NCBI RefSeq assembly: GCF_964030745.1
Contig: NZ_OZ034918.1
Coordinates: 390,001-422,000 of the forward strand
Length of the DNA: 32,000 nucleotides
Direction: 5' to 3'
Source of the DNA: Candidatus Saccharimonadota bacterium
GTDB taxonomy: Bacteria > Bacteroidota > Bacteroidia > Cytophagales > Amoebophilaceae
The notes under the pieces are model-generated. The model was given only the letters and a program-made list of their open reading frames with translations. It did not search any database and was not told where the DNA came from. Below, piece after piece: positions 2,734 to 21,951 of the stretch. The position numbers and the translations under genes are program-made. Every line of letters begins with the position of its first letter. The first letter of the stretch is position 1.

Positions 2734-3519
2734 TTACTTAAGATAGTCCTTTAAAGCACTTCTAATTTCTTGAGCAGATAGGTTGTTTTCCATGGCACCC
2801 TTTCTAGCTATGGATATCTGGCCAGACTCTTCTGAAACAATCAGAACCAACGCATCTGTTATCTCGGTAAGCCCAACAGCTGCTTTATGACGCAATCCAA
2901 ACCGAGCCGCCATATTGGGATGCTCCGTCACAGGCAAGATACACCTTGCTGCCACAATCCTATTGCTATGAATAATCACAGCACCATCATGCAATGGGCT
3001 ATATTTATTAAATATAGCAATCAATAACCGAGCAGAAACTACTGCATTAATCAAATCACCAGATTCTTCGTAGTAGCGCAGGTCTGCATCCTTTGTAAAA
3101 ACGATCAGTGCACCTGTATTGCTTCCCCCTAGTGTTTGAACAGCCTTTACCACTGGTGTTACATCCACTTCACTTTTTTTATGCGCCAACCAAGGAATCA
3201 TTTGCACAATTGTCGCCTTACTGCCCATAAGGGCTGTACCCATGCTAAACAAGAAATGACGGATCTCCCTTTGAAAAAGAATAATGGGAACGATAGGGCT
3301 AGTAAATAGGCTCAAAATAGATGTCAGCACCGTCAGATGTAAAGCCCGAACAATCCAGTAAAAAAAACAGACAACCAAAAAACCCAAAATGCTCTTTACA
3401 GCTATGCTCCCCTTGAGTAACTTATATGCCCAATAGACCAAGCAACCAAATAGCGCCATATCAACGACAAGCCTAAAACGAATGTCCCAGCTCTCAAGAT
3501 ATAATAGGTTCAATGGCAT
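2734..3519 (-). CDS. cdaA: Membrane-anchored diadenylate cyclase (CdaA/DacA type)
   Basis: N-terminal TM helices followed by a DAC domain: TGALIVF, PLHDGAVII, GLRHKAAVGLTE, LIVSEESGQISIA. Confidence 0.85.
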   Translation of the reverse strand: MPLNLLYLESWDIRFRLVVDMALFGCLVYWAYKLLKGSIAVKSILGFLVVCFFYWIVRALHLTVLTSILSLFTSPIVPIILFQREIRHFLFSMGTALMGSKATIVQMIPWLAHKKSEVDVTPVVKAVQTLGGSNTGALIVFTKDADLRYYEESGDLINAVVSARLLIAIFNKYSPLHDGAVIIHSNRIVAARCILPVTEHPNMAARFGLRHKAAVGLTEITDALVLIVSEESGQISIARKGAMENNLSAQEIRSALKDYLK

Positions 3520-3933: not shown

Positions 3934-5211
3934 ATGCTTAATATGCTTAAAAAGCTCATATTCTACGAAAAGCTATGGTTCATATTAATAGCTTCAGTCC
4001 ATATAATGGGAGGAAATTGTAGATCTACTCGTTCTCTTCCTCTTACCCTTCCTCCTGCTACCCGAATAGAGAATACTCATAAATCAAGCCAAAAAGCTCC
4101 CATTCAGCCAAACCAGCTAGAGGGCGATACAGGCAGTCTACATTCAGACATTAGTGACTCCTCAGGGATCTCTACTGGCAGTTCCGCTTCAGGTTATTCT
4201 AATAGGAGTAGTTCATCAGGAACCTCTAGTGGGTATTATTCCTCAGGAGGGTCAACTTCTCCTCCCCCGCCCCCCTCTCCTCCTCCTACCCCAACCGATT
4301 TTGCAGGACTACCGAATATGGGCAACACATGTTATATGAATGCAGTATTGCAAATTATTGCAGCTTTGTATCCAGATGAAGTGCAAGAACAAAATATTAA
4401 TTATTTAGAAAATTCCAACAATGCAATTAATAATGGTCATTATCCATTAAATCCTGATAAAGTACAGGGCTTTATATCTTCTTTCCCAGAAAAAGCGAAA
4501 AACATCGCCACATCAGGTCAACAATACGATCCTGATGAGTTTATCATGGCGCTTGGTGGAGCAGAACTTTTACATCATATTTGTTATACTGAAAGCTTCC
4601 TTTGTAAAAGAAAAAGAGGCGATGAACAAGTTCTTTATAAAAAAGAGAGCCCTAAGCAACCCGAATACGGATTGCAAGTAAGTCTTAACAGGGAATCTAT
4701 CACGAAACTTAGCCTGAGTGACATGATTGCATCCGGTAGAGAAGAACTAGTGGATGATGAAGGTATATCAATCGATTCATGGGATAGTTACAAGCCCTAC
4801 ACGGGCACTAAATCTTCTTTTCTAAAAGAAAAAGAAAGTCAGCTAACCCCTCAAGAAGGAAATCGTTTAAAACAGTATATCAAACAACAAGTGATCAATA
4901 AACTTCCTGATAAATTATACATACAATTAAAGCGATATACAAACCATAACACAAAAATAGAAGATCTTGTCCATGGAACAATGGAAATTACCATTAAACC
5001 AGATCCTAATAAGGAGGATACTGTGCGGTTTGCTTTAGAGGGATTTATTCTACATAAGGGTACCACGACGGGTGGCCACTATATTGCCTATGTAAAGCGG
5101 AACGGAAAGTGGTATGAAGCGAATGATTCATCCATAAAAACTACTGAGCAGACAGACGTTATAGACGCATCTAAAGAAGCTTACCTATTGTTTTATAGAA
5201 AAAAGCAGTAG
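3934..5211 (+). CDS. Eukaryote-like ubiquitin-specific protease (peptidase C19, USP/UCH) with N-terminal hydrophobic leader and Ser/Gly/Pro-rich linker
   Basis: Cys box GLPNMGNTCYMNAVLQIIAAL and His box GGHYIAYVKRNGKWYEANDSSI...EAYLLFYRKK. Hydrophobic N-terminus (LWFILIASVHIMGG). Low-complexity tract SSGISTGSSASGYSNRSSSSGTSSGYYSSGGSTSPPPPPSPPPTPT. Confidence 0.85.
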   Translation: MLNMLKKLIFYEKLWFILIASVHIMGGNCRSTRSLPLTLPPATRIENTHKSSQKAPIQPNQLEGDTGSLHSDISDSSGISTGSSASGYSNRSSSSGTSSGYYSSGGSTSPPPPPSPPPTPTDFAGLPNMGNTCYMNAVLQIIAALYPDEVQEQNINYLENSNNAINNGHYPLNPDKVQGFISSFPEKAKNIATSGQQYDPDEFIMALGGAELLHHICYTESFLCKRKRGDEQVLYKKESPKQPEYGLQVSLNRESITKLSLSDMIASGREELVDDEGISIDSWDSYKPYTGTKSSFLKEKESQLTPQEGNRLKQYIKQQVINKLPDKLYIQLKRYTNHNTKIEDLVHGTMEITIKPDPNKEDTVRFALEGFILHKGTTTGGHYIAYVKRNGKWYEANDSSIKTTEQTDVIDASKEAYLLFYRKKQ

Positions 5212-5234
5212 GATATAAATCTTTATTAGCAGCA

Positions 5235-5262
5235 TTCTGGCCGCCGATAAACGAATCCGGTG
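5235..5262 (-). repeat. Diverged inverted copy of the dispersed ~28-bp repeat (family B terminus)
   Basis: ttctggccgccgataa is the reverse complement of the ..tatcggcggccagaa core seen at 10508, 10578, 11476 and 26030. Confidence 0.5.
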
Positions 5263-5302
5263 CTTCAGTAAATTATAGTCTTTATAATATCTATTTATCA
5301 AC

Positions 5303-5584
5303 GTGTCCATTCATCACTATGGTTACATTTTTCTGAAAAAGCAAATAACTAACCGAGTACCAGCCCCTTATCTCCTTCGATAAAAAAATGGCGCTCTAGT
5401 AAAACACTAACACCTGAGCGATATGTTTTTTAGCGGATTAGAAAATCATCTGTTTGAAGCCCCGCGTAGCGGGCTGAGTTTACGATTTTCCCGCTGAAAA
5501 ACTTATCGATTCATCTATTTACTATCGGGACAGACTTTTTATCGAAGGAGATAAGGGGACCCAACCACAGGCGTGAATAGATAC
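5303..5584. mobile_element. Long-palindrome MITE, family A, copy 1
   Basis: About 280 bp, near-identical to 10204-10484. Perfect 23-nt inverted repeat ccccttatctccttcgataaaaa (5364-5386) / tttttatcgaaggagataagggg (5536-5558). Arms pair almost end to end around a central GC hairpin gccccgc-gtag-cgggc. No coding capacity. Confidence 0.85.
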
Positions 5585-5843
5585 ACGTTTTTCTGAAAAA
5601 GCAAATAGCTAACCAAGTACCAGCCCCGCGCCTCCTTCGATAAAAAATGGCGCTCTAGTAAAACACTAACACCTGAGCGATATGTTTTTTAGCGGATTAG
5701 AAAATCGTCTGTTTGAAGCCCCGCATAGCGGGCTGAGTTTACGATTTTCCCGCTAAAAAACATATCGATTCAGCTATTTACTATCGGGCCAGATTTTTTA
5801 TCGAAGGAGATAAGGGGACCCAACCACAGACGTGAATAGATAC
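5585..5843. mobile_element. Long-palindrome MITE, family A, copy 2 (head-to-tail with copy 1, lacks ~22 nt of the left terminus)
   Basis: Directly abuts copy 1 and is collinear with it, with scattered substitutions. Ends with the same ..caccacagacgtgaatagatac terminus. Confidence 0.85.
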
Positions 5844-5956
5844 GGTTGATATGTTTTGGATACATTATATATGTATTTAAAGAATAGTAGATAAAAATGT
5901 ATGGCCATATCATATTACTATGACAAGTTTTACGACTTCGGTAAAAGAGCATAACA

Positions 5957-8900
5957 TTACATAGTATTAACATTTAAAATCTGCTCACATATATCTTCCA
6001 TTTCTGTTAACCAGGTTAAAACATTATTTTTTCTAGCCCATGGAATATAAAATTCCATAGTATCTTTAGCAATTCTTTTTTGTTCTTCTGGCTTACGTAC
6101 ATTTATGGTTCTTAGATTATGCAGCCTATCAGCTAGTTTAATCTGAACGACACGAATATCCTTACATTTATTCAATATAACTTGATTGTCTGAATTATCT
6201 AATTTCCATCGGTAACCATGGGTATTATAATGTGTAACCATATCTACTACATAAGCTATATCTGGACCATATTGTAGTTCTATTTGCTCTAATGTGACCA
6301 TTGTATCCTCTACTACATCATGCAATAGAGCAGCCAAAATAGTATTGGCATTCTTTGTAGCCTCTAATACGATCTTAGCTACTTCCATAGGATGGGTATA
6401 GTAAGGGTCACCTGACTTACGTATAGTAGTGCCATGAGCTTTCTTAATAAAGCTAATGGTCTCTTGTATCTTTTGCTCAGTTAAGGTTGTTTTGCTTATC
6501 AATAGACTAATGAGCGCTTTTTCTTGTGCCAAACTTTCATCAGTTTCTGCTACCTTATTAGATAAATCATTTGTATGATATCGCTTAAACTGCATAACTT
6601 TTTTACCATCAACAGGTAATATGTAAAGGCAGGTTAAACTAGTTGCTGTTTCTATGGTTTGCATATATCCTCCATGGGCTTGTACAATTTGTCTACTTTC
6701 TTCTTGATATAAATTATTAATGGTTTTAGGTAAGTAACCTAAAGGAATTTTATCGGTAATTTCATAGGTAGGTAATATTTCTGGGCTGTCTGTTTCGGTA
6801 GATATAGAGAAGGCGAGTGCAGGCAATATAGGAGGTATTAATTGTTTTTCATGATCATTGCGAGTATAGTATGGGTAAGACACCAATGTATTTGTAATTG
6901 TTAGGGTAATGATATCTTCTGTTGCCTTCTTGCTTCTGCAAATATTCCAAAAGTTTATAGTAAATAGTCTTTCCAAAATAGCTGGTTCTGTTAATAAATA
7001 TTTTTCTATGGTTTTATTTTTTAAAAGCAGTTGTATGGGTTTACCTAGTCCTTTGATAGATTCATAAGATTGTAGGATCAGGGAGTCTATTTTAACTTGT
7101 TGAATAGCTTTTGGATCTAAGGTAAAGGTACGCTCTTCCTTAGCTCTTTGTAGTAGGAATCTAGACAAGGTATATAGCTTTTCCCTATGTTTTTCTATCT
7201 GTAGCTTATCTACACTAGTATCCAACGTATCGGCTATATCTTGTACTATTTTCCCGTTATAAGTAGGATCTAATCGATTCCAATTGGCTTGATTATGTAG
7301 AGAGGCTAGCGCGTACTTTTGTTCATAGTGTCTATCTAACGCTATAATTTGTAATTGTTTATTAAACTTGATCCTTATATATCGATACACTAAGCAACTG
7401 AGTAGGATAGTTAACCCTACCATTATTTCTGTAGTTACCAGTCCTTTATAGTTCATAAGGGCTACATGAGGAGGCATCCATTTATATATCAATAATGTGA
7501 CAGATATCATCGCTATTATTATAGTATATGGCAATAATAAGCTACTTAGGCCTACGTTTACTATAAACAATGCGCAGGAAATAGGTGTAAAACAACTTAA
7601 TTTCATATATACGATACCAGAAATAAAAAGGGCTACATATAATAGTATAGGCCACAATCCATACAGTAGACTATTACCTTCTTTCTGATAAATGTGCATA
7701 GCAGGATATAAGGCTATAATTGTTCCTATAGCCATAACAGTTATGTACCAGTAGATGTAGGAATCGAGATAGATTTTTTGTATACATAATAGGGATATAG
7801 AGCTATATATAGTAAGATAAATACCAAATGAAATAAAAATAGAAGTTTGTTTAGGGAAAATATCAGACCAATAAGATATTGTAAAAACAGATTGTATATA
7901 CTGTATTTTTCTTAACCACCAACGTTTCGTCTCTTGATTTTGTAGTATTACAGGACTATAATCTGGAATACCTATCCATCCTGTATTAGGTTTTTTAGGT
8001 AGAAGATAATGTAGAGCAAATGAGATACAAGTACTCATTACAACGAATTTCAATATATCGCTTTGTTCTATAACTTGCTCCTTTACAAATATGATATAAG
8101 CTATTAGTGTGGTACTAATGGCCATACTACATAAAACATTCACAGTACAAGGCTTAAAACCAAAACAGGGTAGAATAAACGGAACGGTAATAACAGTGGT
8201 ATAAAATAGAGCAGATTTATTCAACAATTGTAGAATGCTCGTCGCATAAAATGCAATAAATATGCTAACTATACCTATAGTTACAGCACTTATACGTGCT
8301 ATTTTAAGAGAGGGTGTACGAAATATAGAAAATTTTTTCAATAGAAATGGAAATAGATCATTAGTACATAACACAGATGCAACATGTAAGTCAGAATCAG
8401 CAGTGGACATCAATAAAGCAATAATGCTTGATACCAATAACCCTTTAATACCAGGAAAATAGTCAAGATGTATAACATAGTCCAGTACATGTTGGCCTTG
8501 TATGGGGGTATGCCCACCTATATGCAGCATTATTGCAACAGAAAAAGCAAGTAAGGAAAAAATAATACGTATAACAGCAGTATTACGAAATACTCTAGCT
8601 GCTTGTTGTAGGGAAGAAGACATATAGATGCGCTGAATAAGAGCTGGATTCATAGGAAATAGCATCAAAGCAGCGTAAGCAGTAATTGTGTGCAAAACAT
8701 TATTCCATGTACAAACCTCTATCGGATTAAATTTCGGTATTTGCATCAATGCCTTACAATTATCCCATGGATGATAGGTGTAATGTAGAAGTATAAGAAT
8801 GACGACTGGAAAACAAACAAAAAATAATAAAAATTGACATACATCTGTAAACGCTACAGGTTTAGCACCTCCAAAAGAGGAATAGGTAATAACAATTAAA

Positions 8901-9382
8901 GATAAAATGATTGCCCATAGGATGGGTATATTTTCTACGTCAGGAAATATAATATGGGATATACTAAGGCCAACTTTAAACTGAATAGAAACTATAGCAA
9001 TGGCCATTAGGATTCCAAAGAAAGCGGTTATGATTCGAATGGTTTGGCCGTATAGTATTCCCATAGACTCAGCTACCGAAAGGTGTCCTATAAAGGGCCT
9101 CATTCTTACAATAAGAAATCGAGAGATTAAGTAAAAACCTATGGGAAGGACTAAATCCCTAACTAACGTATACAAACCATTATAGTAGTAAGCATTTAGT
9201 CTGGTTGTTAAAAAACCACCGCCATAAACAGTGGCTATTAAGGAAGCGGTTAACACAACTGTCGGCATTTGTTTATTACCAACTGCATAGTGTTTGAATG
9301 TAGCAACTGACTTGCTACAGTATAAACCTAGTGCCAGTGTAATTACTAAGAATACTATTATGATTAAGCAGTCTATACCCAT
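5957..9382 (-). CDS. Multidomain membrane protein: sodium:solute symporter (SSF/SLC5)-like domain + extra TM block + degenerate histidine-kinase-like region + SpoT/RelA-type HD (p)ppGpp hydrolase domain
   Basis: The N-terminal ~480 aa are polytopic with an SSF-like start (FKHYAVGNKQMP..LTASLIATVYGGGF). The central region has an N-box-like INFWNICRS and an HATPase_c-like end QIVQAHGGYMQTIETATSLTCLYILPV. The C-terminus reads GDPYYTHPMEVAKIV...LAALLHDVVEDT...IKLADRLHNLRT, i.e. HD hydrolase motifs. No synthetase domain. Confidence 0.8.
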   Translation of the reverse strand: MGIDCLIIIVFLVITLALGLYCSKSVATFKHYAVGNKQMPTVVLTASLIATVYGGGFLTTRLNAYYYNGLYTLVRDLVLPIGFYLISRFLIVRMRPFIGHLSVAESMGILYGQTIRIITAFFGILMAIAIVSIQFKVGLSISHIIFPDVENIPILWAIILSLIVITYSSFGGAKPVAFTDVCQFLLFFVCFPVVILILLHYTYHPWDNCKALMQIPKFNPIEVCTWNNVLHTITAYAALMLFPMNPALIQRIYMSSSLQQAARVFRNTAVIRIIFSLLAFSVAIMLHIGGHTPIQGQHVLDYVIHLDYFPGIKGLLVSSIIALLMSTADSDLHVASVLCTNDLFPFLLKKFSIFRTPSLKIARISAVTIGIVSIFIAFYATSILQLLNKSALFYTTVITVPFILPCFGFKPCTVNVLCSMAISTTLIAYIIFVKEQVIEQSDILKFVVMSTCISFALHYLLPKKPNTGWIGIPDYSPVILQNQETKRWWLRKIQYIQSVFTISYWSDIFPKQTSIFISFGIYLTIYSSISLLCIQKIYLDSYIYWYITVMAIGTIIALYPAMHIYQKEGNSLLYGLWPILLYVALFISGIVYMKLSCFTPISCALFIVNVGLSSLLLPYTIIIAMISVTLLIYKWMPPHVALMNYKGLVTTEIMVGLTILLSCLVYRYIRIKFNKQLQIIALDRHYEQKYALASLHNQANWNRLDPTYNGKIVQDIADTLDTSVDKLQIEKHREKLYTLSRFLLQRAKEERTFTLDPKAIQQVKIDSLILQSYESIKGLGKPIQLLLKNKTIEKYLLTEPAILERLFTINFWNICRSKKATEDIITLTITNTLVSYPYYTRNDHEKQLIPPILPALAFSISTETDSPEILPTYEITDKIPLGYLPKTINNLYQEESRQIVQAHGGYMQTIETATSLTCLYILPVDGKKVMQFKRYHTNDLSNKVAETDESLAQEKALISLLISKTTLTEQKIQETISFIKKAHGTTIRKSGDPYYTHPMEVAKIVLEATKNANTILAALLHDVVEDTMVTLEQIELQYGPDIAYVVDMVTHYNTHGYRWKLDNSDNQVILNKCKDIRVVQIKLADRLHNLRTINVRKPEEQKRIAKDTMEFYIPWARKNNVLTWLTEMEDICEQILNVNTM

Positions 9383-9629
9383 AGCTTATCTATATTTTTT
9401 ACGTATTTATGTAAAATACTATAATAAAATTTATTAAATACCTCCATCGCTAGTTTATGCACGGTTCAATAATCATTCTTTTATATTGAAAGATATAGCG
9501 TACATTTACGTTAAGAACGTTTTTCCATGAGGCATTGAAATAAGATACATTACGCATGTAATCATCATGATTTATCAGGTAATAATTTAATTAGGTGCCT
9601 AGTAAGGTTATACACATAAACATAATAAT

Positions 9630-10076
9630 ATGAAAGATTATACTTTACGAGTAACAGCTAGGGCGCTAATAGTAAAAAATAGTCAGTTGTTGCTTGTTAG
9701 CAATGATTATAAAATTTGGCATACACCTGGTGGACACTTAGAACCAAGTGAAATGCTTCCAGATTGCATGGTAAGAGAAGTAAAGGAAGAAACTGGCCTT
9801 GATGTTCAACCAATTCAAATTGTCTATGTTGCAGATTTTTTTGATAAAAAGTATAATATACATAAGGTAGAGGTCTATTTTGCTGCCAAAACATGTGTAA
9901 ATGAGCTTCCTAAAGATTGGTTAGACCAAGATGGCCCGGTTAAAACTGCTCAATTTTTTGATGTTGAAGCCTTAAAAGATATGCATGTTATACCAGCCTT
10001 TTTAAAAACAGGGAAATGGTTAAATTCTGATCTTGATGTTTATCAAAGATCAGAGCGTGGCTCTCTAGTAGTTTAA
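9630..10076 (+). CDS. Nudix hydrolase
   Basis: Nudix box GGHLEPSEMLPDCMVREVKEETGL (GX5EX7REVXEEXGU); 148 aa. Confidence 0.85.
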   Translation: MKDYTLRVTARALIVKNSQLLLVSNDYKIWHTPGGHLEPSEMLPDCMVREVKEETGLDVQPIQIVYVADFFDKKYNIHKVEVYFAAKTCVNELPKDWLDQDGPVKTAQFFDVEALKDMHVIPAFLKTGKWLNSDLDVYQRSERGSLVV

Positions 10077-10203
10077 ATTTTCGTATCCCACCAATGAGCC
10101 TGAAATACGCATAAGTAGGAGCTAACCGAAGGGTCTGCTTTTTTATCAAGAAAAAAGTGGAATAAAATTCATTATTAACCAGTGACGTAAACAGATATTT
10201 TCA

Positions 10204-10484
10204 GTATCCATTCATCACTATGACTACGTTTTTCTGAAAAAGCAAATAACTAACCGAGTACCAGCCCCGCATCTCCTTCGATAAAAAAATGGCGCTCTAG
10301 TAAAACACTAACAGCTGAGCGATATGTTTTTTAGCGGATTAGAAAATCGTCTGTTTGAAGCCCGCGTAGCGGGCTGAGTTTACGATTTTCCCGTTAAAAA
10401 ACATATCGATTCATCTATTTACTATCGGGCCAGACTTTTTATCGAAGGAGATAAGGGGACCCAACCACAGGCGTGAATAGATAC
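10204..10484. mobile_element. Long-palindrome MITE, family A, copy 3, with 8-bp target-site duplication
   Basis: Termini gtatccattca / tgaatagatac are inverted. The element is flanked by the direct repeat tattttca at 10196-10203 and 10485-10492. The interior is collinear with copies 1 and 2. Confidence 0.9.
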
Positions 10485-10507
10485 TATTTTCATTACTTTA
10501 CTGCGTG

Positions 10508-10611
10508 TCCAATTCCTCTATCGGCGGTCAGCAACAAGGGAGGCTTTTATCGACAGCCAGAAACAGAGCGGATCGGATGCCCAATTCCTCTATCAGCGGC
10601 CAGAAATAAGG
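10508..10611 (+). repeat. Cluster of three copies or partial copies of the ~28-bp family B repeat
   Basis: tccaattcctctatcggcggtcag (10508-10531), ttatcgacagccagaaac (about 10546-10563), tgcccaattcctctatcagcggccagaa (10578-10605). Confidence 0.7.
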
Positions 10612-10615
10612 CAAG

Positions 10616-11020
10616 CTACTTATAGTTATCTATATCCCAAGGATTAATGATCTTTAACTCATGCATACTATCAAAATCCTTAGCATTACGTGTAATCAAG
10701 GTTAACTTATGTACCATAGCTGTAGCTGCTATAATAGCATCAGGAAGTTTAATCTTTATTTCTTTCCTGATTTCAACTGTTTTAAGCTTTATGGGCTGTT
10801 CTAGCTCAATAATTGGAGCCTTATTAAGAAATTTATTCAATACCTTTGTTCCATCCGAACTATCTGTTTTCCAACACAATAACTCTAGCTCTGTAACCAC
10901 TGATATTGTCGGGAAACCTGATTTTAGCAATCCATGTATATAATTCCGTACAATCTCTGGAAATTGTTTTTGTAAGTAATAAATGACCGTATTAGTGTCC
11001 CATAAATATTTTACTCCCAT
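10616..11020 (-). CDS. vapC: PIN-domain toxin (VapC-like)
   Basis: 134 aa. N-terminal WDTNTVIYYL acidic motif and DAIIAATA motif typical of PIN. Overlaps the upstream small ORF by 10 nt, as expected for a TA operon. Confidence 0.8.
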   Translation of the reverse strand: MGVKYLWDTNTVIYYLQKQFPEIVRNYIHGLLKSGFPTISVVTELELLCWKTDSSDGTKVLNKFLNKAPIIELEQPIKLKTVEIRKEIKIKLPDAIIAATAMVHKLTLITRNAKDFDSMHELKIINPWDIDNYK

Positions 11021-12285: not shown

Positions 12286-13635
12286 CTACAATAGCTTTTC
12301 GTGAAACATGCCAGCTAGTCGATAGAGTTCAAATTCTGCTTGCTTTACCTTAAAAGCATGTTCTACTACACCGATTTCTGCTTTTTGAGTAGCTTCTTCT
12401 GCTTCATGTAGTTCCAGTAGCTTTACTTGCTTGAGACGGTACTTTTCTCTTATAAAAGCCAGTTTTTGTTTATTTATTTTCAGTTGCTCTTCTGCCACCT
12501 TATGCGCATCTAAGGCATGGCGGTATTGCCATGTTTTATCTTCTAAACGACCCTCTACTGCTGATTGTTGTTGCTGCAATGCAAAGGTTGCATGATCTAA
12601 TGCAATCCTAGCCTTTTGAACCTTTGCAGGCATTAGCAGGAAGGTAAGGATATCTATACTCATGCCAATGCTCCCTCGCCACTGCATAGACTTATCATAC
12701 AGATGCAATGCTCCCTCACCTAAATCATATCGATAACCATTGGAACGAAACCCACCTGATAGGCTGATACAAGAAAGTGGATAGGCCTTAGCCCTACTTA
12801 CCTCGGTTTTGGCTATGTCTACCCGCTTTTTGTGTATGGATTCGTCCAAATCAACCACTTTATCCTTTGTAACCGCTTTCATATCCCATATAGGCTGTAC
12901 AGAAATAGTGGATTGAACCAATGTTTCTGTATGAATGGGTTTACCAAGTATTAAGTTTAAATTGCGACGTTTGCCTTTCAAGGCTTCCTGACGCTCCAAT
13001 AAACTTAACTTTACCTGCTTTAAGGCCAGCTGCGCATCTAAACAATCTATTTTGGAAATGCGGCCTATCTTTAACTTCTCCTCCTCTACCTTTAACCTGG
13101 CTGTGGCAAGCTTGAGTAAATTATTGGATAATTCCCATTTTTTTTGCGCCAATGCTAGTTCATAATAAGCAGTAATGACTTGCTGCAACTCCTTTTCTAC
13201 CGATTTTTTTGCAACGAGCTGATGTATACAATTACTTTGACAATGAATTTTCGTCTGAAAAATTTTATCACATAGTGATGAGAACTCCCATTTTAATGTA
13301 AAAAAAGGCATAGAGTGAATGTACAGTTGTAGGGTCGGTCCTTCCGCGTTACCTTCTTGAGAAGATCCTTTAATACCTGATTGCCAAATATTTTCACTAG
13401 AAACCATAAAGGTAGCTCGAGGAGCCCATATGCGAAAAGTGTCTATTCTATTAGATAGGATTGCTTGCTTTTTAGTCTTTGCAGCAATCTGAATAGGTAC
13501 ATTATCTTTTAGTGCCATCTGTATGGCTTCTTGTAAACTAATGGGCGTTTCTTTGGCTTGGATTTTATTGTAAGCAAAAAGTGTTATACTAGCCATCAGG
13601 CTCAAACGTAACACCAAGTTTTTAATCATTAACAT
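12286..13635 (-). CDS. Outer-membrane efflux protein (TolC/OEP family), paralogue 1
   Basis: Signal-like N-terminus, 449 aa, two coiled-coil-rich repeats. Last gene of the exporter operon. Long blocks are shared with the 28205-29485 product. Confidence 0.8.
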   Translation of the reverse strand: MLMIKNLVLRLSLMASITLFAYNKIQAKETPISLQEAIQMALKDNVPIQIAAKTKKQAILSNRIDTFRIWAPRATFMVSSENIWQSGIKGSSQEGNAEGPTLQLYIHSMPFFTLKWEFSSLCDKIFQTKIHCQSNCIHQLVAKKSVEKELQQVITAYYELALAQKKWELSNNLLKLATARLKVEEEKLKIGRISKIDCLDAQLALKQVKLSLLERQEALKGKRRNLNLILGKPIHTETLVQSTISVQPIWDMKAVTKDKVVDLDESIHKKRVDIAKTEVSRAKAYPLSCISLSGGFRSNGYRYDLGEGALHLYDKSMQWRGSIGMSIDILTFLLMPAKVQKARIALDHATFALQQQQSAVEGRLEDKTWQYRHALDAHKVAEEQLKINKQKLAFIREKYRLKQVKLLELHEAEEATQKAEIGVVEHAFKVKQAEFELYRLAGMFHEKLL

Positions 13636-13653
13636 TTTTAGTAAAATTTTTAT

Positions 13654-14313
13654 TTAGACAATTTTTCCATCTACAATTTCTTGAATATTATTGCATTGCC
13701 GTGCTACCTGAACAGAGTGTGTTACGATAAGAATGGTATTCCCCTCTCTATTCATTTCCTTAAGTAGGGCCATGATTTCATGGGCCGTACTACTATCTAA
13801 GGAGCCGGTTGGCTCATCTGCTAAAATTAAAGGAGGCGCTGTTACCAATGCGCGTGCAATAGCCACTCTTTGCTGCTGCCCACCTGAAAGGGAGCTCGGT
13901 CTGTGACGAACATATGCAGACAATCCAACTTTATCAAGCATGGCCAAGGCACGTTTGCAACACTCGTCTCTGTCTATTCCTTGGTAATAGAGGGGCAAGG
14001 CCACATTTTCTAAAGCCGTTTTAAAGGGAATTAAATGAAACCGCTGAAAGATAAACCCTATTAACTGACTTCTATATTTACTGGCTTTTTGGTTAGAAAG
14101 ATTTTTTACATGGACCCCATTCAGGTAATAGTTCCCACGGTCATAATCATCTAGTATACCAATAATATTCAACAACGTAGACTTACCAGCACCAGATTGC
14201 CCCATTAAGGCAACAAGATCTCCTTTTTCAAGATGAAAATTGATCCCCCTAAGTACTTCTCTAGTAACCGTGCCGTTTTGATAGGATTTATATAAGTCCT
14301 GAATCTGAATCAT
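13654..14313 (-). CDS. ABC transporter ATP-binding protein (MacB/LolD-type NBD)
   Basis: Walker A GQSGAGKST, signature LSGGQQQRVAIARAL, Walker B LILADEPTGSLD. Confidence 0.9.
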   Translation of the reverse strand: MIQIQDLYKSYQNGTVTREVLRGINFHLEKGDLVALMGQSGAGKSTLLNIIGILDDYDRGNYYLNGVHVKNLSNQKASKYRSQLIGFIFQRFHLIPFKTALENVALPLYYQGIDRDECCKRALAMLDKVGLSAYVRHRPSSLSGGQQQRVAIARALVTAPPLILADEPTGSLDSSTAHEIMALLKEMNREGNTILIVTHSVQVARQCNNIQEIVDGKIV

Positions 14314-14314
14314 G

Positions 14315-15445
14315 CTACGTTTCTACAATTAAGTGGTCGGCTTCCGTAAGCCCTTCCTTTACTTCTACATAAATGCCATCTGATAACCCCAACACCACAT
14401 TTTTTTTAACTACTTTACCTTCATGCAAACATTTTACGAAATAGGTAGCGCCTTCCATGTGAACCATGCGCTCTGGAATAGCCAACACATCGTTTGCTTG
14501 CTCTAAAATTACCTCTGCAAGGGCTATATAGCCTGCGCGTAAAGTAACCTTTGACTTTTTAGGTTTTCGTATAACCCCTTCTATTTCAAATTTGGTTTCT
14601 CCTTTTTTTAATGCTTCTTCACTGGCTTTTGGTGAAATTTTGGTTAAAGTAACTTGGAGTTTTTCCTCATTTAAAGCATTTAAGGAGGCTGTAAAGGTCA
14701 TACCTTTGGTGAGATGGACTACATCTAATTCACTTACCTTCGCGGAAAATAAAAACTGATCCATATCTCCAATCACGGCTACTGTGGCTCCAGAAGCCCT
14801 TTCGCTCACTGCCTGCACCATACTGCCCTCTTTAACTGGCAGGTCTAAGATGGTCCCTTTCGTAGTAGCTTTCACAACATTGGCAGCTGCTCCTTTTGTG
14901 GTAGTATAGCCACGCTGACTGATTTCTAACTCCTTCTGAGCTGCAACAACTTTTTCTTTGCTTTGCTCCCACTCTGCTAAAGAGGCTTCATAGGCTTCTT
15001 TAGCCAACATCTTTTTACTAAAAAGTTGCTTGTTTCTTAAGTATTTGGCTCTGGCTTGATTCCGATCAATAGTAGCCAAACGCAACTTGCTTGCTGCAAC
15101 CTGAACTTGTTGTGGCTTAGGTTGTATTTTAATACGGGCAACAGCTGCACCTTGCTGTATATAATCCCCTACCCGTACAAATAGTTTGTCTATAATACCG
15201 GTAACATGCGCCTCTAGCTTAATTTCTTTATGGGGTATAAGGCTACCAGAAAACACTTTTTTTCGAACAATGGTTCTACAAGTAGGCTGTGTGGTTGGAA
15301 CAACTACCTGATCTACGCTCCTCCAAAAGGCTAGTTGATCTAACTTGTTCCATTGGTCTTTATATAGTTTGGCATAAGCAAAAACCCCTCCAGTGAGGAT
15401 ACCAGTGGTTAAAATCAATTTGGTTATTATACGCATTTTATTCAT
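14315..15445 (-). CDS. Periplasmic adaptor / membrane fusion protein (HlyD/MacA family)
   Basis: N-terminal anchor, lipoyl-like hairpins (GIIDKLFVRVGDYIQQGAAVARI), central coiled coil and C-terminal beta domain. 8-nt overlap with the upstream permease. Confidence 0.85.
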   Translation of the reverse strand: MNKMRIITKLILTTGILTGGVFAYAKLYKDQWNKLDQLAFWRSVDQVVVPTTQPTCRTIVRKKVFSGSLIPHKEIKLEAHVTGIIDKLFVRVGDYIQQGAAVARIKIQPKPQQVQVAASKLRLATIDRNQARAKYLRNKQLFSKKMLAKEAYEASLAEWEQSKEKVVAAQKELEISQRGYTTTKGAAANVVKATTKGTILDLPVKEGSMVQAVSERASGATVAVIGDMDQFLFSAKVSELDVVHLTKGMTFTASLNALNEEKLQVTLTKISPKASEEALKKGETKFEIEGVIRKPKKSKVTLRAGYIALAEVILEQANDVLAIPERMVHMEGATYFVKCLHEGKVVKKNVVLGLSDGIYVEVKEGLTEADHLIVET

Positions 15446-16637
15446 TATTTAAAGCATCTACTGGCCTAATGGACAATGCTCTTTTTACAGGGATCATACC
15501 AGCTAAACAACCAGAACACACCAAAACGACTAAGGCATATCCAGGAAATTGAAATTCAAAACGAGCAATACCATATTTTTCAATAATAGGCAACAGATAG
15601 TTATTTACCCATCGAAGGATGGTGATGCCCGCTCCCAAACCTAAGATACCAGAAATCAAGTTAATGGCAACCGATTCGAATAAAATTAAACCGATAATAT
15701 GGCTGGACTTAGCTCCAACTACCTTACGAATAGCCAGTTCTTGTGTACGTTCTTTCACGACCACTAACATCATGTTGCCTACCCCCACTACGCCACTAAC
15801 CAAAAAACAGAAGCTAACCAGCCAAATAAATGCCTGCATCATGATAAACAATAGTTGAAAAGATCGAGCCCGTTTAGATAAACTATGTATATACACTGCC
15901 TGCCTATCTTCCGCATCAAAATGGAGCCGCCTGGCCAAATAGGCGCGCACTTTTTTTTCTACCTGTAGCGGATTTTGTTTGGGCGCTAAGGTAGCAATGA
16001 CAGAATCAACCTGCTCTGCATGGTTGGGGAACAATGCTTTAAATAAACTGCTTGGAATAATGACTTTATCATCATCTATTCCAGCTGTTGCCTCTAATAC
16101 ACCAATCACCGCAAGAACAGTGCCATCTATGGTAATGAACTGCCCAACCGCTTCCTGTCTATCAAATAGGTCAGTTTTCATTTTCAAGCCTAGGATACAA
16201 ACTGGTAGCCTTTGGACTACATCACGTTCGGAGAAAAAACGCCCCGCCACAAGCTCCAAGTATTTCATCTTTTCATACCCAATACGTACACCTAATATAG
16301 GGCTTTTATATAGGTTTTGCCCGTAAGCAACAGAACTATTAGTGCGAAAGACAGGCATGATGTGCTCAAAAACATTCAAATTACTGGCAAGGTCATCTGT
16401 TAATGCTTCTGTCAAATGCATTTGATCTGTTAGCCTGTAACCTGCATAAATGTACAACAAACGGTCACTATAGCGCTGAAATCTTGTAACCATACCATTA
16501 TAAAGTCCAGTGCCTGCCCCTTGTAAAAGCACCAAGATCAACATTGCCCACATCACACCAAACCCGGTAAAAACAGTCCGCATTTTATGGGCTTTTAAAC
16601 TATCAAGAGCCTCTAAAAACAACTGATATCCAAACAT
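15438..16637 (-). CDS. ABC transporter permease (MacB_PCD + FtsX domain), copy 2
   Basis: One N-terminal TM, a large periplasmic domain and a C-terminal FtsX-like 3-TM bundle ending ..PVKRALSIRPVDALNNE. Confidence 0.85.
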   Translation of the reverse strand: MFGYQLFLEALDSLKAHKMRTVFTGFGVMWAMLILVLLQGAGTGLYNGMVTRFQRYSDRLLYIYAGYRLTDQMHLTEALTDDLASNLNVFEHIMPVFRTNSSVAYGQNLYKSPILGVRIGYEKMKYLELVAGRFFSERDVVQRLPVCILGLKMKTDLFDRQEAVGQFITIDGTVLAVIGVLEATAGIDDDKVIIPSSLFKALFPNHAEQVDSVIATLAPKQNPLQVEKKVRAYLARRLHFDAEDRQAVYIHSLSKRARSFQLLFIMMQAFIWLVSFCFLVSGVVGVGNMMLVVVKERTQELAIRKVVGAKSSHIIGLILFESVAINLISGILGLGAGITILRWVNNYLLPIIEKYGIARFEFQFPGYALVVLVCSGCLAGMIPVKRALSIRPVDALNNE

Positions 16638-16646
16638 AAATTATTT

Positions 16647-17861
16647 TTATTTGCTACCCAATGCCTCTACAGGTTTTATATTTACCGCACGTATAGCGGG
16701 TAAGATACCAGCCAAACAGCTTGCCAAAGCAATCAATCCCAACCCCGTCAAGATAAACGAAGGAGGGCAGGTCAAAGTAGCTAGGTAATAGTCTTTGCAT
16801 AATGGGACTAACCATTTATTTAACAACTGGATCAGTCCAAAGCCTGCTACAAAACCAACCATACCCGCCACAAGGGTGACCATAACCACTTCAGCTAAAA
16901 TCATCGCAACAATTTCTATGGAACGGCTTCCCAATACCCTACGAATCGCCATCTCTTGTTTTCTTTCTTGAATGGTTACCAGCATCATATTACTCATAGC
17001 TACAATACCTGTTATCAGCAGACATACCCCTAGTATAGCATTAAAAATAAAAATATTTCTAAAAAAGGCATCAAATTTAGCGGCATGTTTGGCAATACTA
17101 AATAGACTAAGCGCTTGTGGGTTTTTGGCATCAAAGTTCAAATGACGTGCAAAATAAGCGCGAAATTGTGTTTCAGCCACTGCTGGACAGGCATCAGGCA
17201 GTAGGGTCAACCGAATAGCGCTTACATAATTACTACGCTGAGGAAATATCTTTTTAAACAAACTATTGGTAAGCAATATTGCATCAGATTCATGGTAGAG
17301 ACTAGCATCTAACGGATCTAATACGCCTACTACTTTCAGGCCAATGCCTTCCAAAAAAATATACTTCCCAATAGCAGAGGCTGCGCCAAATAACCTTTCT
17401 TTGACAGCTATGCCGATAACACAAAGGTCATCTGCGGCCACAGCATCGCGCGGTGTAAAGAAACGCCCTTCCTGTAGGGATAGATTAGCCAATAGCAGAT
17501 AACAAGGATCGCATCCCAAAATGGATGCATTGATTTTTTTTGTTGCATAGCTGACGTGGCTGCTATGCCACAATATAGGGCTAACATATTGAATCGCATG
17601 AAATGGCTCAGATAAGTTTGTCGCCATGGCTAGTGGAATGGGATGGTGGCTACCGCCGCTTCTGCCTTGCCAAAGGATCATGGTTTTTGTGCCATACTTT
17701 GCAAATGCCTGAGCAACACCATTGTGCACGCCATTGCCAAATGCTACTAGCAACACCAGCATAAAAATAGCCCACAATACACCAAAACCCATAGAAAAGG
17801 TTCGAGCGGTATGGATTTTAAGGCTCTGGCACGCCTCCCTGAAAGGATCTAAAATAGACAT
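16647..17861 (-). CDS. ABC transporter permease (MacB_PCD + FtsX domain), copy 1
   Basis: Same architecture as its neighbour, C-terminus ..PAIRAVNIKPVEALGSK. The two are divergent paralogues. Confidence 0.85.
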   Translation of the reverse strand: MSILDPFREACQSLKIHTARTFSMGFGVLWAIFMLVLLVAFGNGVHNGVAQAFAKYGTKTMILWQGRSGGSHHPIPLAMATNLSEPFHAIQYVSPILWHSSHVSYATKKINASILGCDPCYLLLANLSLQEGRFFTPRDAVAADDLCVIGIAVKERLFGAASAIGKYIFLEGIGLKVVGVLDPLDASLYHESDAILLTNSLFKKIFPQRSNYVSAIRLTLLPDACPAVAETQFRAYFARHLNFDAKNPQALSLFSIAKHAAKFDAFFRNIFIFNAILGVCLLITGIVAMSNMMLVTIQERKQEMAIRRVLGSRSIEIVAMILAEVVMVTLVAGMVGFVAGFGLIQLLNKWLVPLCKDYYLATLTCPPSFILTGLGLIALASCLAGILPAIRAVNIKPVEALGSK

Positions 17862-21357: not shown

Positions 21358-21951
21358 ATGAACCTGCAAGTAATTATTCGAAAGTTTAGTTTTATACTTT
21401 TAATATTTGGGTTAAATGGAAACAGGAACTGCACCAGTCAGCAAAAGAATATAAAATTAATTTCTGGTTCCAAGCAACAGGCTATTCAAGCCAGAACAAT
21501 CTCTACTTCCAATCCTACTGATAATCCAAAAGAAACTCCATTAGAAGAAAAAAAGAATGCCCCAGTAGTTATTGATACTAAGCAAAATGATCCCAATAGC
21601 AATGATAAAGCTAAAAACAAAGTAAAAAACGAGCAAAGCAACAGTTCAGATACCAAACCTTGTGCTACCCACAATCGAACTCCTGCATTACATCACTCAA
21701 CAAATAAATCGTTTGATACAAACGCCAAACAACTCAAGGCATCCAGAATAACAGAATCGAGTAATAAAATAAAAATCCTTGATAAGGAAATAAAAAAACT
21801 TAAAAAACAACTAGATCTCTATTACAAATATTGGTTCATAAGATTTCTTACACGAAAAGGGTGGGACACAGAAATACAAAAAAAAATTACGTTAAAAACA
21901 AGCGAGTATCAACAATACCAGCAAATTTTAGCCAAAGAAATGGACCCATAG
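21358..21951 (+). CDS. Hypothetical secreted protein, Asn/Lys/Ser-rich with C-terminal coiled-coil-like segment
   Basis: Hydrophobic leader FSFILLIFGLNG, a long low-complexity polar region, then KIKILDKEIKKLKKQLDLYYKY. No recognisable domain. Confidence 0.4.
   Translation: MNLQVIIRKFSFILLIFGLNGNRNCTSQQKNIKLISGSKQQAIQARTISTSNPTDNPKETPLEEKKNAPVVIDTKQNDPNSNDKAKNKVKNEQSNSSDTKPCATHNRTPALHHSTNKSFDTNAKQLKASRITESSNKIKILDKEIKKLKKQLDLYYKYWFIRFLTRKGWDTEIQKKITLKTSEYQQYQQILAKEMDP

Follow-up and report, generated by a model that had tools for sequence, protein, structure and literature searches.

Several kinds of signaling protein are known whose parts recur in the gene described here. In Proteobacteria the sensor kinases CbrA and CrbS use an N-terminal sodium:solute symporter domain (SLC5, also SSF) as the input to a cytoplasmic module, a design referred to as a 'transceptor', and in CbrA there are also STAC and PAS domains, together with a kinase that is active and phosphorylates CbrB. 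Pseudo-histidine kinases of the RetS and DivL type retain the DHp and CA fold of histidine kinases (HKs) as a scaffold without normal autophosphorylation, and RetS acts by binding another kinase, GacS. Small alarmone hydrolases (SAHs) such as rickSpo are single-domain proteins of ∼200 amino acids (aa) with the same HD_4 fold and the same catalytic motifs as the hydrolase domain of long Rel/SpoT enzymes (RelA/SpoT homologs, RSHs). Two further families, SLC5sbd and SLC5sbd+HK, have spread laterally among Rickettsiales, Amoebophilus, and Cardinium, and SLC5sbd+HK has proliferated in Orientia and Occidentia (Driscoll et al. 2017, PMC5615194). Here we describe a gene at 5957..9382 on the minus strand of a 32,000-nt stretch of contig NZ_OZ034918.1 (positions 390,001–422,000; hereafter the window), which encodes one membrane protein of 1141 aa that joins an SLC5/SSF-like domain, a histidine-kinase module that has lost its catalytic motifs, and a Rel/SpoT-type (p)ppGpp hydrolase domain with all of its catalytic residues. 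An NCBI protein of 'Cardinium endosymbiont of Philonthus spinipes', encoded on a contig of 1,093,165 bp, matches the product at 100 per cent identity, which makes the source organism a Cardinium, an insect endosymbiont from the family Amoebophilaceae (Bacteroidota).

Relatives of this gene have been catalogued in symbiont genomes and are uncharacterized. In Amoebophilus 15 RSH genes were listed as a 'Rel[HS] + rickSpo[H] expansion', with no mention of a membrane or transporter part of these proteins (Atkinson et al. 2011, PMC3153485), 18 'spoT' homologs have also been reported in Amoebophilus, and counts of a 'spoT/sodium cotransporter' family are available for Cardinium genomes (Brown 2018). 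A further study deals with RelA/SpoT toxin domains only (PMC3482391). Our literature search found no paper on the dead-kinase linker, the three-part anatomy, the mechanism, or a test of any member. The architecture had been called undescribed in a first-pass annotation of the same DNA; this holds for the dead-kinase anatomy and the function, for which we found no description, and not for the family as such, which both Atkinson et al. and Brown recorded. Set against the characterized systems, the novelty lies in a dead kinase within an SLC5 sensor-kinase scaffold whose chain ends in an alarmone-hydrolase output.

The gene is an uninterrupted open reading frame (ORF) with an ATG start, and the fusion it encodes is genuine. 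The four-part domain reading offered by the first-pass annotation was correct. At least 59 full-length relatives (1109–1193 aa; 22–78 per cent identity to the target) share the architecture, all of them from Cardinium, Amoebophilus, or metagenome-assembled genomes (MAGs) of Cytophagales or Bacteroidota. Every module, the dead kinase included, is under purifying selection: the ratio of nonsynonymous to synonymous substitution (dN/dS; Nei–Gojobori, against three orthologous genes) was 0.18–0.26 over the whole gene and 0.15–0.42 per module.

The N-terminal module has an SLC5/SSF fold, as had been proposed, with an end nearer residue 462 than the ∼480 first suggested. Pfam SSF matched residues 32–404 at E = 1.6e-4 and 21.1 bits, slightly under the cut-off of 22.8; NCBIfam PutP matched residues 7–457 at 4.5e-15, with the sss/PutP scores far under their cut-offs; and a single-sequence phmmer search of the SLC5 part against the PDB returned no match. 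A profile built from 15 family sequences was needed, and this matched CHT-type transporters (5.8e-28), SiaT (3.5e-27), and vSGLT (1.8e-21) in the PDB, while a precomputed PF00474 match exists for nearly all orthologs. In the full-length AlphaFold2 (AF2) monomer model, which has a mean predicted local distance difference test score (pLDDT) of 83.3, a predicted TM-score (pTM) of 0.71, and pLDDT of around 85–95 over residues 1–460, the domain shows the LeuT-type fold of 13 transmembrane (TM) helices expected of SSF/SLC5 proteins (TC 2.A.21) and superposes on CHT1/SiaT with Foldseek TM-scores of 0.77–0.83; SGLT1/2, NIS, and vSGLT were also matched. Two segments, T179-D180 and M325-S326-T327-A-D329-S330, are invariant both in the hydrolase-bearing family and in a sister family of histidine kinases discussed below. 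The first aligns with T181-D182 of SiaT and the second with SiaT A339–S347 and with 'VMSSMDSS' of CHT-type transporters, and we take the two SiaT segments to be cation (Na2/Na3) sites. The conserved residues include those typical of the SLC5 cation site, a Ser/Thr pair on TM9 and an Asp on TM6, and the invariance of these segments suggests that the domain may still bind Na+ and cycle.

Hydropathy and the AF2 model agree on the remaining membrane layout, with 13 TM helices in residues 3–460, a connector at 461–512, six further helices in 513–672 (the second TM block that had been noticed from the sequence alone), and a soluble tail of 470 residues. Conserved in both families around the connector are H458, G468, and W469, and the connector loop contains seven Lys or Arg residues and is predicted to lie inside. 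There are thus 19 TM helices in all, and Lys and Arg number 14 inside and 4 outside, a distribution that supports a predicted N-out/C-in topology and would place the tail in the bacterial cytoplasm. TM19 runs without a break into the first DHp-like helix in the model (651–704).

The module that follows escapes Pfam altogether, since none of 21 family members matched HisKA or HATPase_c at E ≤ 1, and BLASTP of residues 672–960 against the sister kinases found nothing; profile–profile and fold comparison were needed. With hhalign the middle region alone aligned to the cytoplasmic part of the sister kinases at 95.7 per cent probability (E = 1e-8), a PDB profile search gave weak HK matches (3a0r, 4.5e-4), and Foldseek matched the DHp and CA domains of RetS, ZraS, and HK853 at probability 1.0, the kinase region of RetS being the top HK structural match (6dk8, E = 5e-7). 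The DHp hairpin and CA fold of sensor histidine kinases are both present, the CA-like alpha/beta domain spanning 761–923 in the model. The first-pass annotation had read HK-like remnants here, and its region stands, as do its placements of the N-box and of 'AHGGY...LPV' as the end of HATPase_c, and its view that the G1 and G2 boxes are degenerate: T-E/D-T-x stands where G1 would be and N-N-L-Y-Q where G2 would be, with neither a DxGxG nor a GxGxG motif. Its H-box, 'SLHNQANW', did not survive. The position of H696 is His in 8 of the 59 members and Tyr in 23, and the H-box of the sister kinases, 'EHEGHTP', aligns to 'DPTYN' in the target, which leaves no phospho-acceptor His; the N-box Asn810 is found in 31 of 59. 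Given that the proposed H-box His is not conserved, the module is on its motifs to be classed as a pseudokinase rather than a weakened kinase. Near-invariant positions nonetheless occur within it (Y873, H903, G905, the 'AHGGY' motif, Y920, and P923). Unlike RetS, this pseudokinase is covalently attached to an enzymatic output, through a linker with pLDDT < 50 at 933–939 and 63–82 per cent identity to the three closest Cardinium orthologs.

That output is a Rel-type HD domain made up of the last 176 residues. Pfam HD_4 matched it at E = 7.5e-26 (91.2 bits against a cut-off of 27.2) and residues 16–197 of RelSeq (1vj7) matched at 3e-52; the motifs RKSGxPY..HP, LLHDVVEDT, and KLADRLHNxRT are common to the target and RelSeq, and the best Foldseek matches to Rel/SpoT had root-mean-square deviations of 2.3–3.5 Å. 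The site residues are all present (R987-K-S-G-D-P-Y, H997, H1021, D1022, E1025, D1026, D1085, R1086, and N1089) and presumably correspond to RelSeq H53, H77/D78, E81/D82, D144, and N148, an equivalence that we draw from the alignment. Each catalytic residue is kept in 52–54 of the 59 members. Non-catalytic variants at these positions, which would have spoken against a hydrolase, are absent from the target, and a Rel-type active site is predicted to be intact. There is no synthetase domain in the target: the protein stops after the HD domain, and spoT_relA (TIGR00691) matched only at positions 4–166 of 687, in keeping with the earlier description of an intact hydrolase domain standing without a synthetase. 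Whereas SAHs consist of the HD domain by itself, here it forms the C-terminus and output of a protein of 1141 aa and 19 TM helices with three further modules. The protein lacks TGS and ACT regulatory domains, and the membrane modules are therefore the only candidates for regulation. As for the origin of the HD domain, a search with residues 940–1141 against 1.84 billion representatives returned family members first and then long RSHs of unrelated phyla (Mycoplasmatales, Gracilibacteria, and Abawacabacteria) at 40–47 per cent identity, so that no donor lineage could be named. The scatter of these relatives agrees with the placement of RickSpo inside long-RSH groups, with domains lost secondarily (Jimmy et al. 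2020).

Aligned by hhalign, residues 1–927 of the target family match residues 3–931 of the sister family at E = 2e-166, and this sister family consists of ∼930-aa SLC5 + HisKA + HATPase_c kinases whose named members are Rickettsiaceae. Common to the two are an SLC5 domain of 13 TM helices, the HYLL..GW.GI connector, the block of 6 TM helices, and the DHp and CA domains, and both proliferate in obligate intracellular bacteria, with lateral spread reported. The Rickettsiales proteins, however, keep the H-box and ATP boxes (Pfam HisKA and HATPase_c) and stop after the kinase, whereas the target has lost those motifs and continues into a Rel-type HD domain. Because the sister proteins are bona fide sensor kinases that share all of residues 1–927, the SLC5, 6-TM, and kinase scaffold is, judged by homology, a signaling device by descent. 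The resemblance to CbrA is one of concept: no STAC or PAS domain was matched by Pfam in the target family, which has the SLC5 domain, carries the 6-TM block in place of STAC/PAS, lacks phosphotransfer, and carries an enzyme output on the same polypeptide. The simplest history is that a Rel-type HD domain was added to the C-terminus of such a kinase and that the catalytic motifs of the kinase were then lost while its fold was kept.

A genome scan using one genome per GTDB species yielded 431 relatives, of which the best 80 loci were inspected. Among these 80, the only matches that extended into the HD domain came from Cardinium, Amoebophilus, Amoebophilaceae, and 'Cytophagales'/'Bacteroidota' MAGs (a 1.45-Mb MAG labeled Roseivirga among them), and Rickettsiales loci matched the SLC5 and 6-TM (and HK) part only. 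The sole apparent Rickettsiales exception among them, in the Rickettsia endosymbiont of Pseudomimeciton antennatum (L039, 2962–6807), is a split form of two same-strand genes, a 1021-aa SLC5 protein in which kinase motifs were not detected and, 123 nt downstream and separated by six stop codons, a 218-aa HD_4 gene. At three further Rickettsiaceae loci an HD gene lies <3 kb away on the opposite strand. Since rickSpo genes are very abundant in those genomes, such adjacency is weak support of the Rosetta-stone kind, and chance adjacency is possible.

Within Cardinium the family has expanded. The 1.19-Mb genome of C. hertigii CP029619.1 contributes at least 13 paralogs to our homolog list (P0020–P0034), and five tandem same-strand paralogs of 1155–1162 aa each stand together in it (310489–333956; L002 2614–21457). 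Across the C. hertigii paralogs divergence is greatest in the SLC5 domain, with a mean identity of 69 per cent versus 82–85 per cent for the output modules, and identity is lowest in TM3, TM7, TM11, and TM12, of which we take TM3, TM7, and TM11 to be pocket-lining helices of the LeuT fold. Orthologs show the reverse pattern, with SLC5 the best conserved module. This pattern of paralog divergence fits a diversified ligand specificity. In Cardinium sp. TP (L003 11752–16969) differing states of the family stand side by side, the ortholog being accompanied by a convergent 1204-aa paralog with a weak HD_4 match and by a 476-aa SSF-only gene. Three relatives, P0171 and P0194 (739–741 aa) and P0122 (710 aa), lack the SLC5 domain and run from the connector and 6-TM block through the HD domain (query ∼458–1137); these could reflect gene calls cut short or a real, shorter architecture.

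Our preferred reading, to which we assign a probability of roughly 0.5, is that the protein is a polytopic inner-membrane one-component 'transceptor-hydrolase' in which (p)ppGpp hydrolysis is gated by whether solute and Na+ occupy the SLC5 domain. The first-pass annotation had already suggested that binding or transport of a solute is coupled to alarmone degradation, which is plausible. Binding or translocation of a host-derived solute with Na+ would alter the conformation of the SLC5 domain; the change would be relayed in sensor-kinase fashion by the 6-TM block and the helices of a probably dimeric dead kinase; and instead of driving phosphotransfer the relayed signal would open or occlude the active site of the HD domain, a putative Rel-type Mn2+-dependent (p)ppGpp 3'-pyrophosphohydrolase attached to the kinase-like module in the cytoplasm. 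Alarmone made by the canonical Rel of the symbiont would then be degraded when the nutrient is present and would persist when it is not, and paralog expansion would equip the symbiont with several such sensors. The clade is expected to have a canonical alarmone synthetase because a separate 'relA' ortholog group is part of the core genome of three Cardinium strains, and is found as well in the set shared with free-living Bacteroidetes (Brown 2018, Supplementary Tables 7–8). A broader proposition, held more tentatively, is that the Amoebophilaceae may have converted a mobile SLC5 sensor-kinase scaffold to a phosphotransfer-free nutrient sensor, in which the dead kinase would mechanically gate the hydrolase and tandem paralogs with divergent pockets would read several host metabolites and set the alarmone level at the membrane.

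Several points weigh against such a coupling. The link between the SLC5 and HD domains is purely our inference, the AF2 model is of a monomer and is silent on regulation and dimerization, and our literature search found biochemical or genetic data for no member of the family. In CbrA, the best-studied SLC5 kinase, transport and signaling are reported to be separable. The pointers to the solute diverge, to PutP by sequence model and to CHT1/SiaT by structure, and the paralog pattern could also arise by gene conversion of the 3' halves. The evidence for a synthetase comes from the literature on three Cardinium strains and Amoebophilus rather than from the source genome. Finally, one subclade (P0060, P0061, P0078, P0094, P0099, and P0101; 1118–1193 aa) lacks the HD catalytic residues and keeps the architecture: HD has become YD, YE, HN, or HG, the ED pair is lost, and ADRLHN reads AERLYD. 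One of its members, P0094, comes from the Cardinium endosymbiont of Sogatella furcifera. These proteins look like pseudo-hydrolases, and because a catalytically degenerate subclade retains the architecture, hydrolysis would not be the sole selected function.

It might instead be supposed that the parts are uncoupled, the protein being an ordinary solute importer that tethers a constitutive (p)ppGpp hydrolase to the membrane, with the dead kinase as an inherited dimerization scaffold or spacer. The SLC5 cation-site residues and the HD site are both intact, as this would require, and the kinase motifs have decayed past Pfam detection in a module whose DHp-like segment is the least conserved of all. 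The module is, however, still held under purifying selection (dN/dS of 0.15–0.42 for the DHp-like part and 0.21–0.29 for the CA-like part, against the three orthologs), and it keeps Y873, H903, G905, and P923 across relatives down to 22 per cent identity. The continuity of TM19 with the DHp helix is moreover a hallmark of a transducing connection, and no family member was seen in which the module is skipped and the HD domain joined directly to the transporter. Uncoupled function is for these reasons unlikely.

The coupling might also act on a different nucleotide pool, such as (p)ppApp, pGpp, or NADPH. RSH-type HD hydrolases are promiscuous; Mesh1 is reported to act on NADPH, and the PDB matches of the target include a (p)ppApp hydrolase (7smg) and a Mesh1–NADPH structure (5vxa). 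Metabolic promiscuity has likewise been described for an orphan small alarmone hydrolase (PMC9765508). Long Rel/SpoT enzymes are nevertheless by far the closer matches of the HD domain (∼1e-50, 30–35 per cent identity, versus 1e-10 to 1e-21 for Mesh1 and the ppApp hydrolase), the margin over Mesh1 alone (∼1e-18 to 1e-21) amounting to ∼30 orders of magnitude, and the RKSGxPY, HDxxED, and ADRLHN motifs are unchanged, which makes another substrate rather unlikely.

The flow of information could, lastly, be reversed, such that the HD domain senses alarmone and its occupancy or turnover regulates uptake through the SLC5 domain, tuning transport to the stringent state. The pseudo-hydrolase subclade, with its full architecture, is what would be expected if binding or structure matters rather than catalysis, and direct control of transporters by nucleotide second messengers is known, as for c-di-AMP and KimA, the latter being among the Foldseek matches. 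Against this, nearly all members (the 52–54 of 59 given above) keep every catalytic residue, and in the ancestral sensor kinases signals enter through the membrane part and leave through the cytoplasmic part, so that reverse flow seems quite improbable. That the gene is an artefact, whether a false join of two genes made in sequencing or assembly or a pseudogene being lost, can be dismissed, for although its third-codon-position GC content (GC3) is low, it stands in an accessory-looking island beside PIN and USP genes, and databases hold many truncated fragments of the family, the ORF is unbroken, the full-length homologs come from independent assemblies and genera, dN/dS is far under 1 for all modules, and GC3 is even across them (0.25–0.29) with no compositional seam.

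The neighborhood of the gene is mixed (Table 1). Core genes around it include tpiA and the genes for pyruvate dehydrogenase (PDH) E1-beta, the c-di-AMP synthase CdaA, SpoU, MacAB–TolC, XerC/D, Lnt, FabH, and AccC, and accessory-looking genes include those for a eukaryote-like USP deubiquitinase, a NUDIX hydrolase, a PIN toxin, and an IS110 transposase. The impression of the first-pass annotation that the target is more AT-rich than neighboring core genes is borne out at silent sites (GC3 0.257 versus 0.33–0.41), and the low-GC3 block extends from about 3934 to 11020 (USP 0.305, NUDIX 0.215, PIN 0.296, against 0.33–0.41 in flanking core genes); this block looks like an accessory or laterally acquired island. 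Similarly AT-rich are the IS110 transposase gene at 26356–27699 (GC3 0.248) and an ORF without a Pfam match at 21358–21951 (GC3 0.288). Rfam, promoter, and terminator scans gave nothing informative.

Table 1. Modules of the target protein and annotated neighboring features, in window coordinates.
Feature	Position	Strand	Basis
CdaA-type diadenylate cyclase (DAC + CdaA_N), 2.4 kb from the target gene	2734–3519	-	Pfam
UCH/USP ubiquitin-hydrolase protein, 425 aa	3934–5211	+	Pfam UCH 4.4e-27
Rel/SpoT-type HD (p)ppGpp hydrolase domain without synthetase, aa 966–1141	5960..6487	-	HD_4, TIGR00691, 1vj7, Foldseek
Linker, low-confidence loop then helix, aa 928–965	6488..6601	-	AF2
CA (HATPase_c)-like alpha/beta domain, N, G1, and G2 boxes lost, aa 756–927	6602..7117	-	hhalign, alignment
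DHp-like helical hairpin without conserved phospho-acceptor His, aa 672–755	7118..7369	-	AF2 helices 651–704, 706–722, 729–751; Foldseek
Second membrane block, 6 TM helices, aa 514–671	7370..7843	-	Hydropathy, AF2, shared with SLC5+HK sister family
Basic cytoplasmic connector, conserved HYLL...GW.GI motif, amphipathic helix 476–508, aa 463–513	7844..7996	-	Alignment, AF2
SLC5/SSF (sodium:solute symporter) domain, 13 TM helices, LeuT fold, aa 1–462	7997..9382	-	Profiles, AF2, Foldseek
NUDIX hydrolase gene, divergent from the target	9630..10076	+	Pfam NUDIX 3.9e-16
PIN-domain toxin gene	10616–11020	-	Pfam PIN 1e-9
TolC and MacA/MacB-type export cluster with two FtsX/MacB permease genes	12286–17861	-	Pfam
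Second export system, TolC-like OEP gene adjoining an opposite-strand C39-peptidase ATP-binding cassette (ABC) exporter gene	28205–31600	opposite strands	Pfam

The divergent NUDIX gene was considered as a functional partner. A NUDIX gene occupies the same divergent position in the two closest orthologous loci (L006 and L007, matched by position); the NUDIX protein adjacent to the family gene in Cardinium sp. TP is only 28 per cent identical, and no NUDIX gene adjoins a family gene in cCpun or Amoebophilus. A partnership is not supported, and we treat the arrangement as local synteny. The USP protein has a hydrophobic N-terminus and a low-complexity stretch rich in Ser, Gly, and Pro, and looks like a eukaryote-like deubiquitinase effector; a Cardinium USP has been discussed as a candidate for cytoplasmic incompatibility (Penz 2012). 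With respect to the nearby CdaA gene, the DarB–Rel complex (8acu) is among the PDB matches of the target. Signaling by c-di-AMP and (p)ppGpp is cross-wired in Bacillus.

What turns (p)ppGpp hydrolysis on and off is a central problem of stringent-response research, and little is known of how obligate intracellular bacteria sense host nutrients. The family offers a compact and testable case in which an input from a well-understood transporter class, a kinase transducer stripped of its chemistry, and a canonical alarmone-hydrolase output stand on one chain, and the soluble C-terminal 200–470 aa should express and assay easily. If the proposed coupling is true, the protein would be an alarmone hydrolase embedded in the membrane and gated by a ligand, for which we have found no described counterpart, and two-component scaffolds would be open to rewiring into one-component enzymes. 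It could also explain the proliferation of 'spoT' genes in Amoebophilus, in Cardinium, and, as separate genes, in Rickettsiales.

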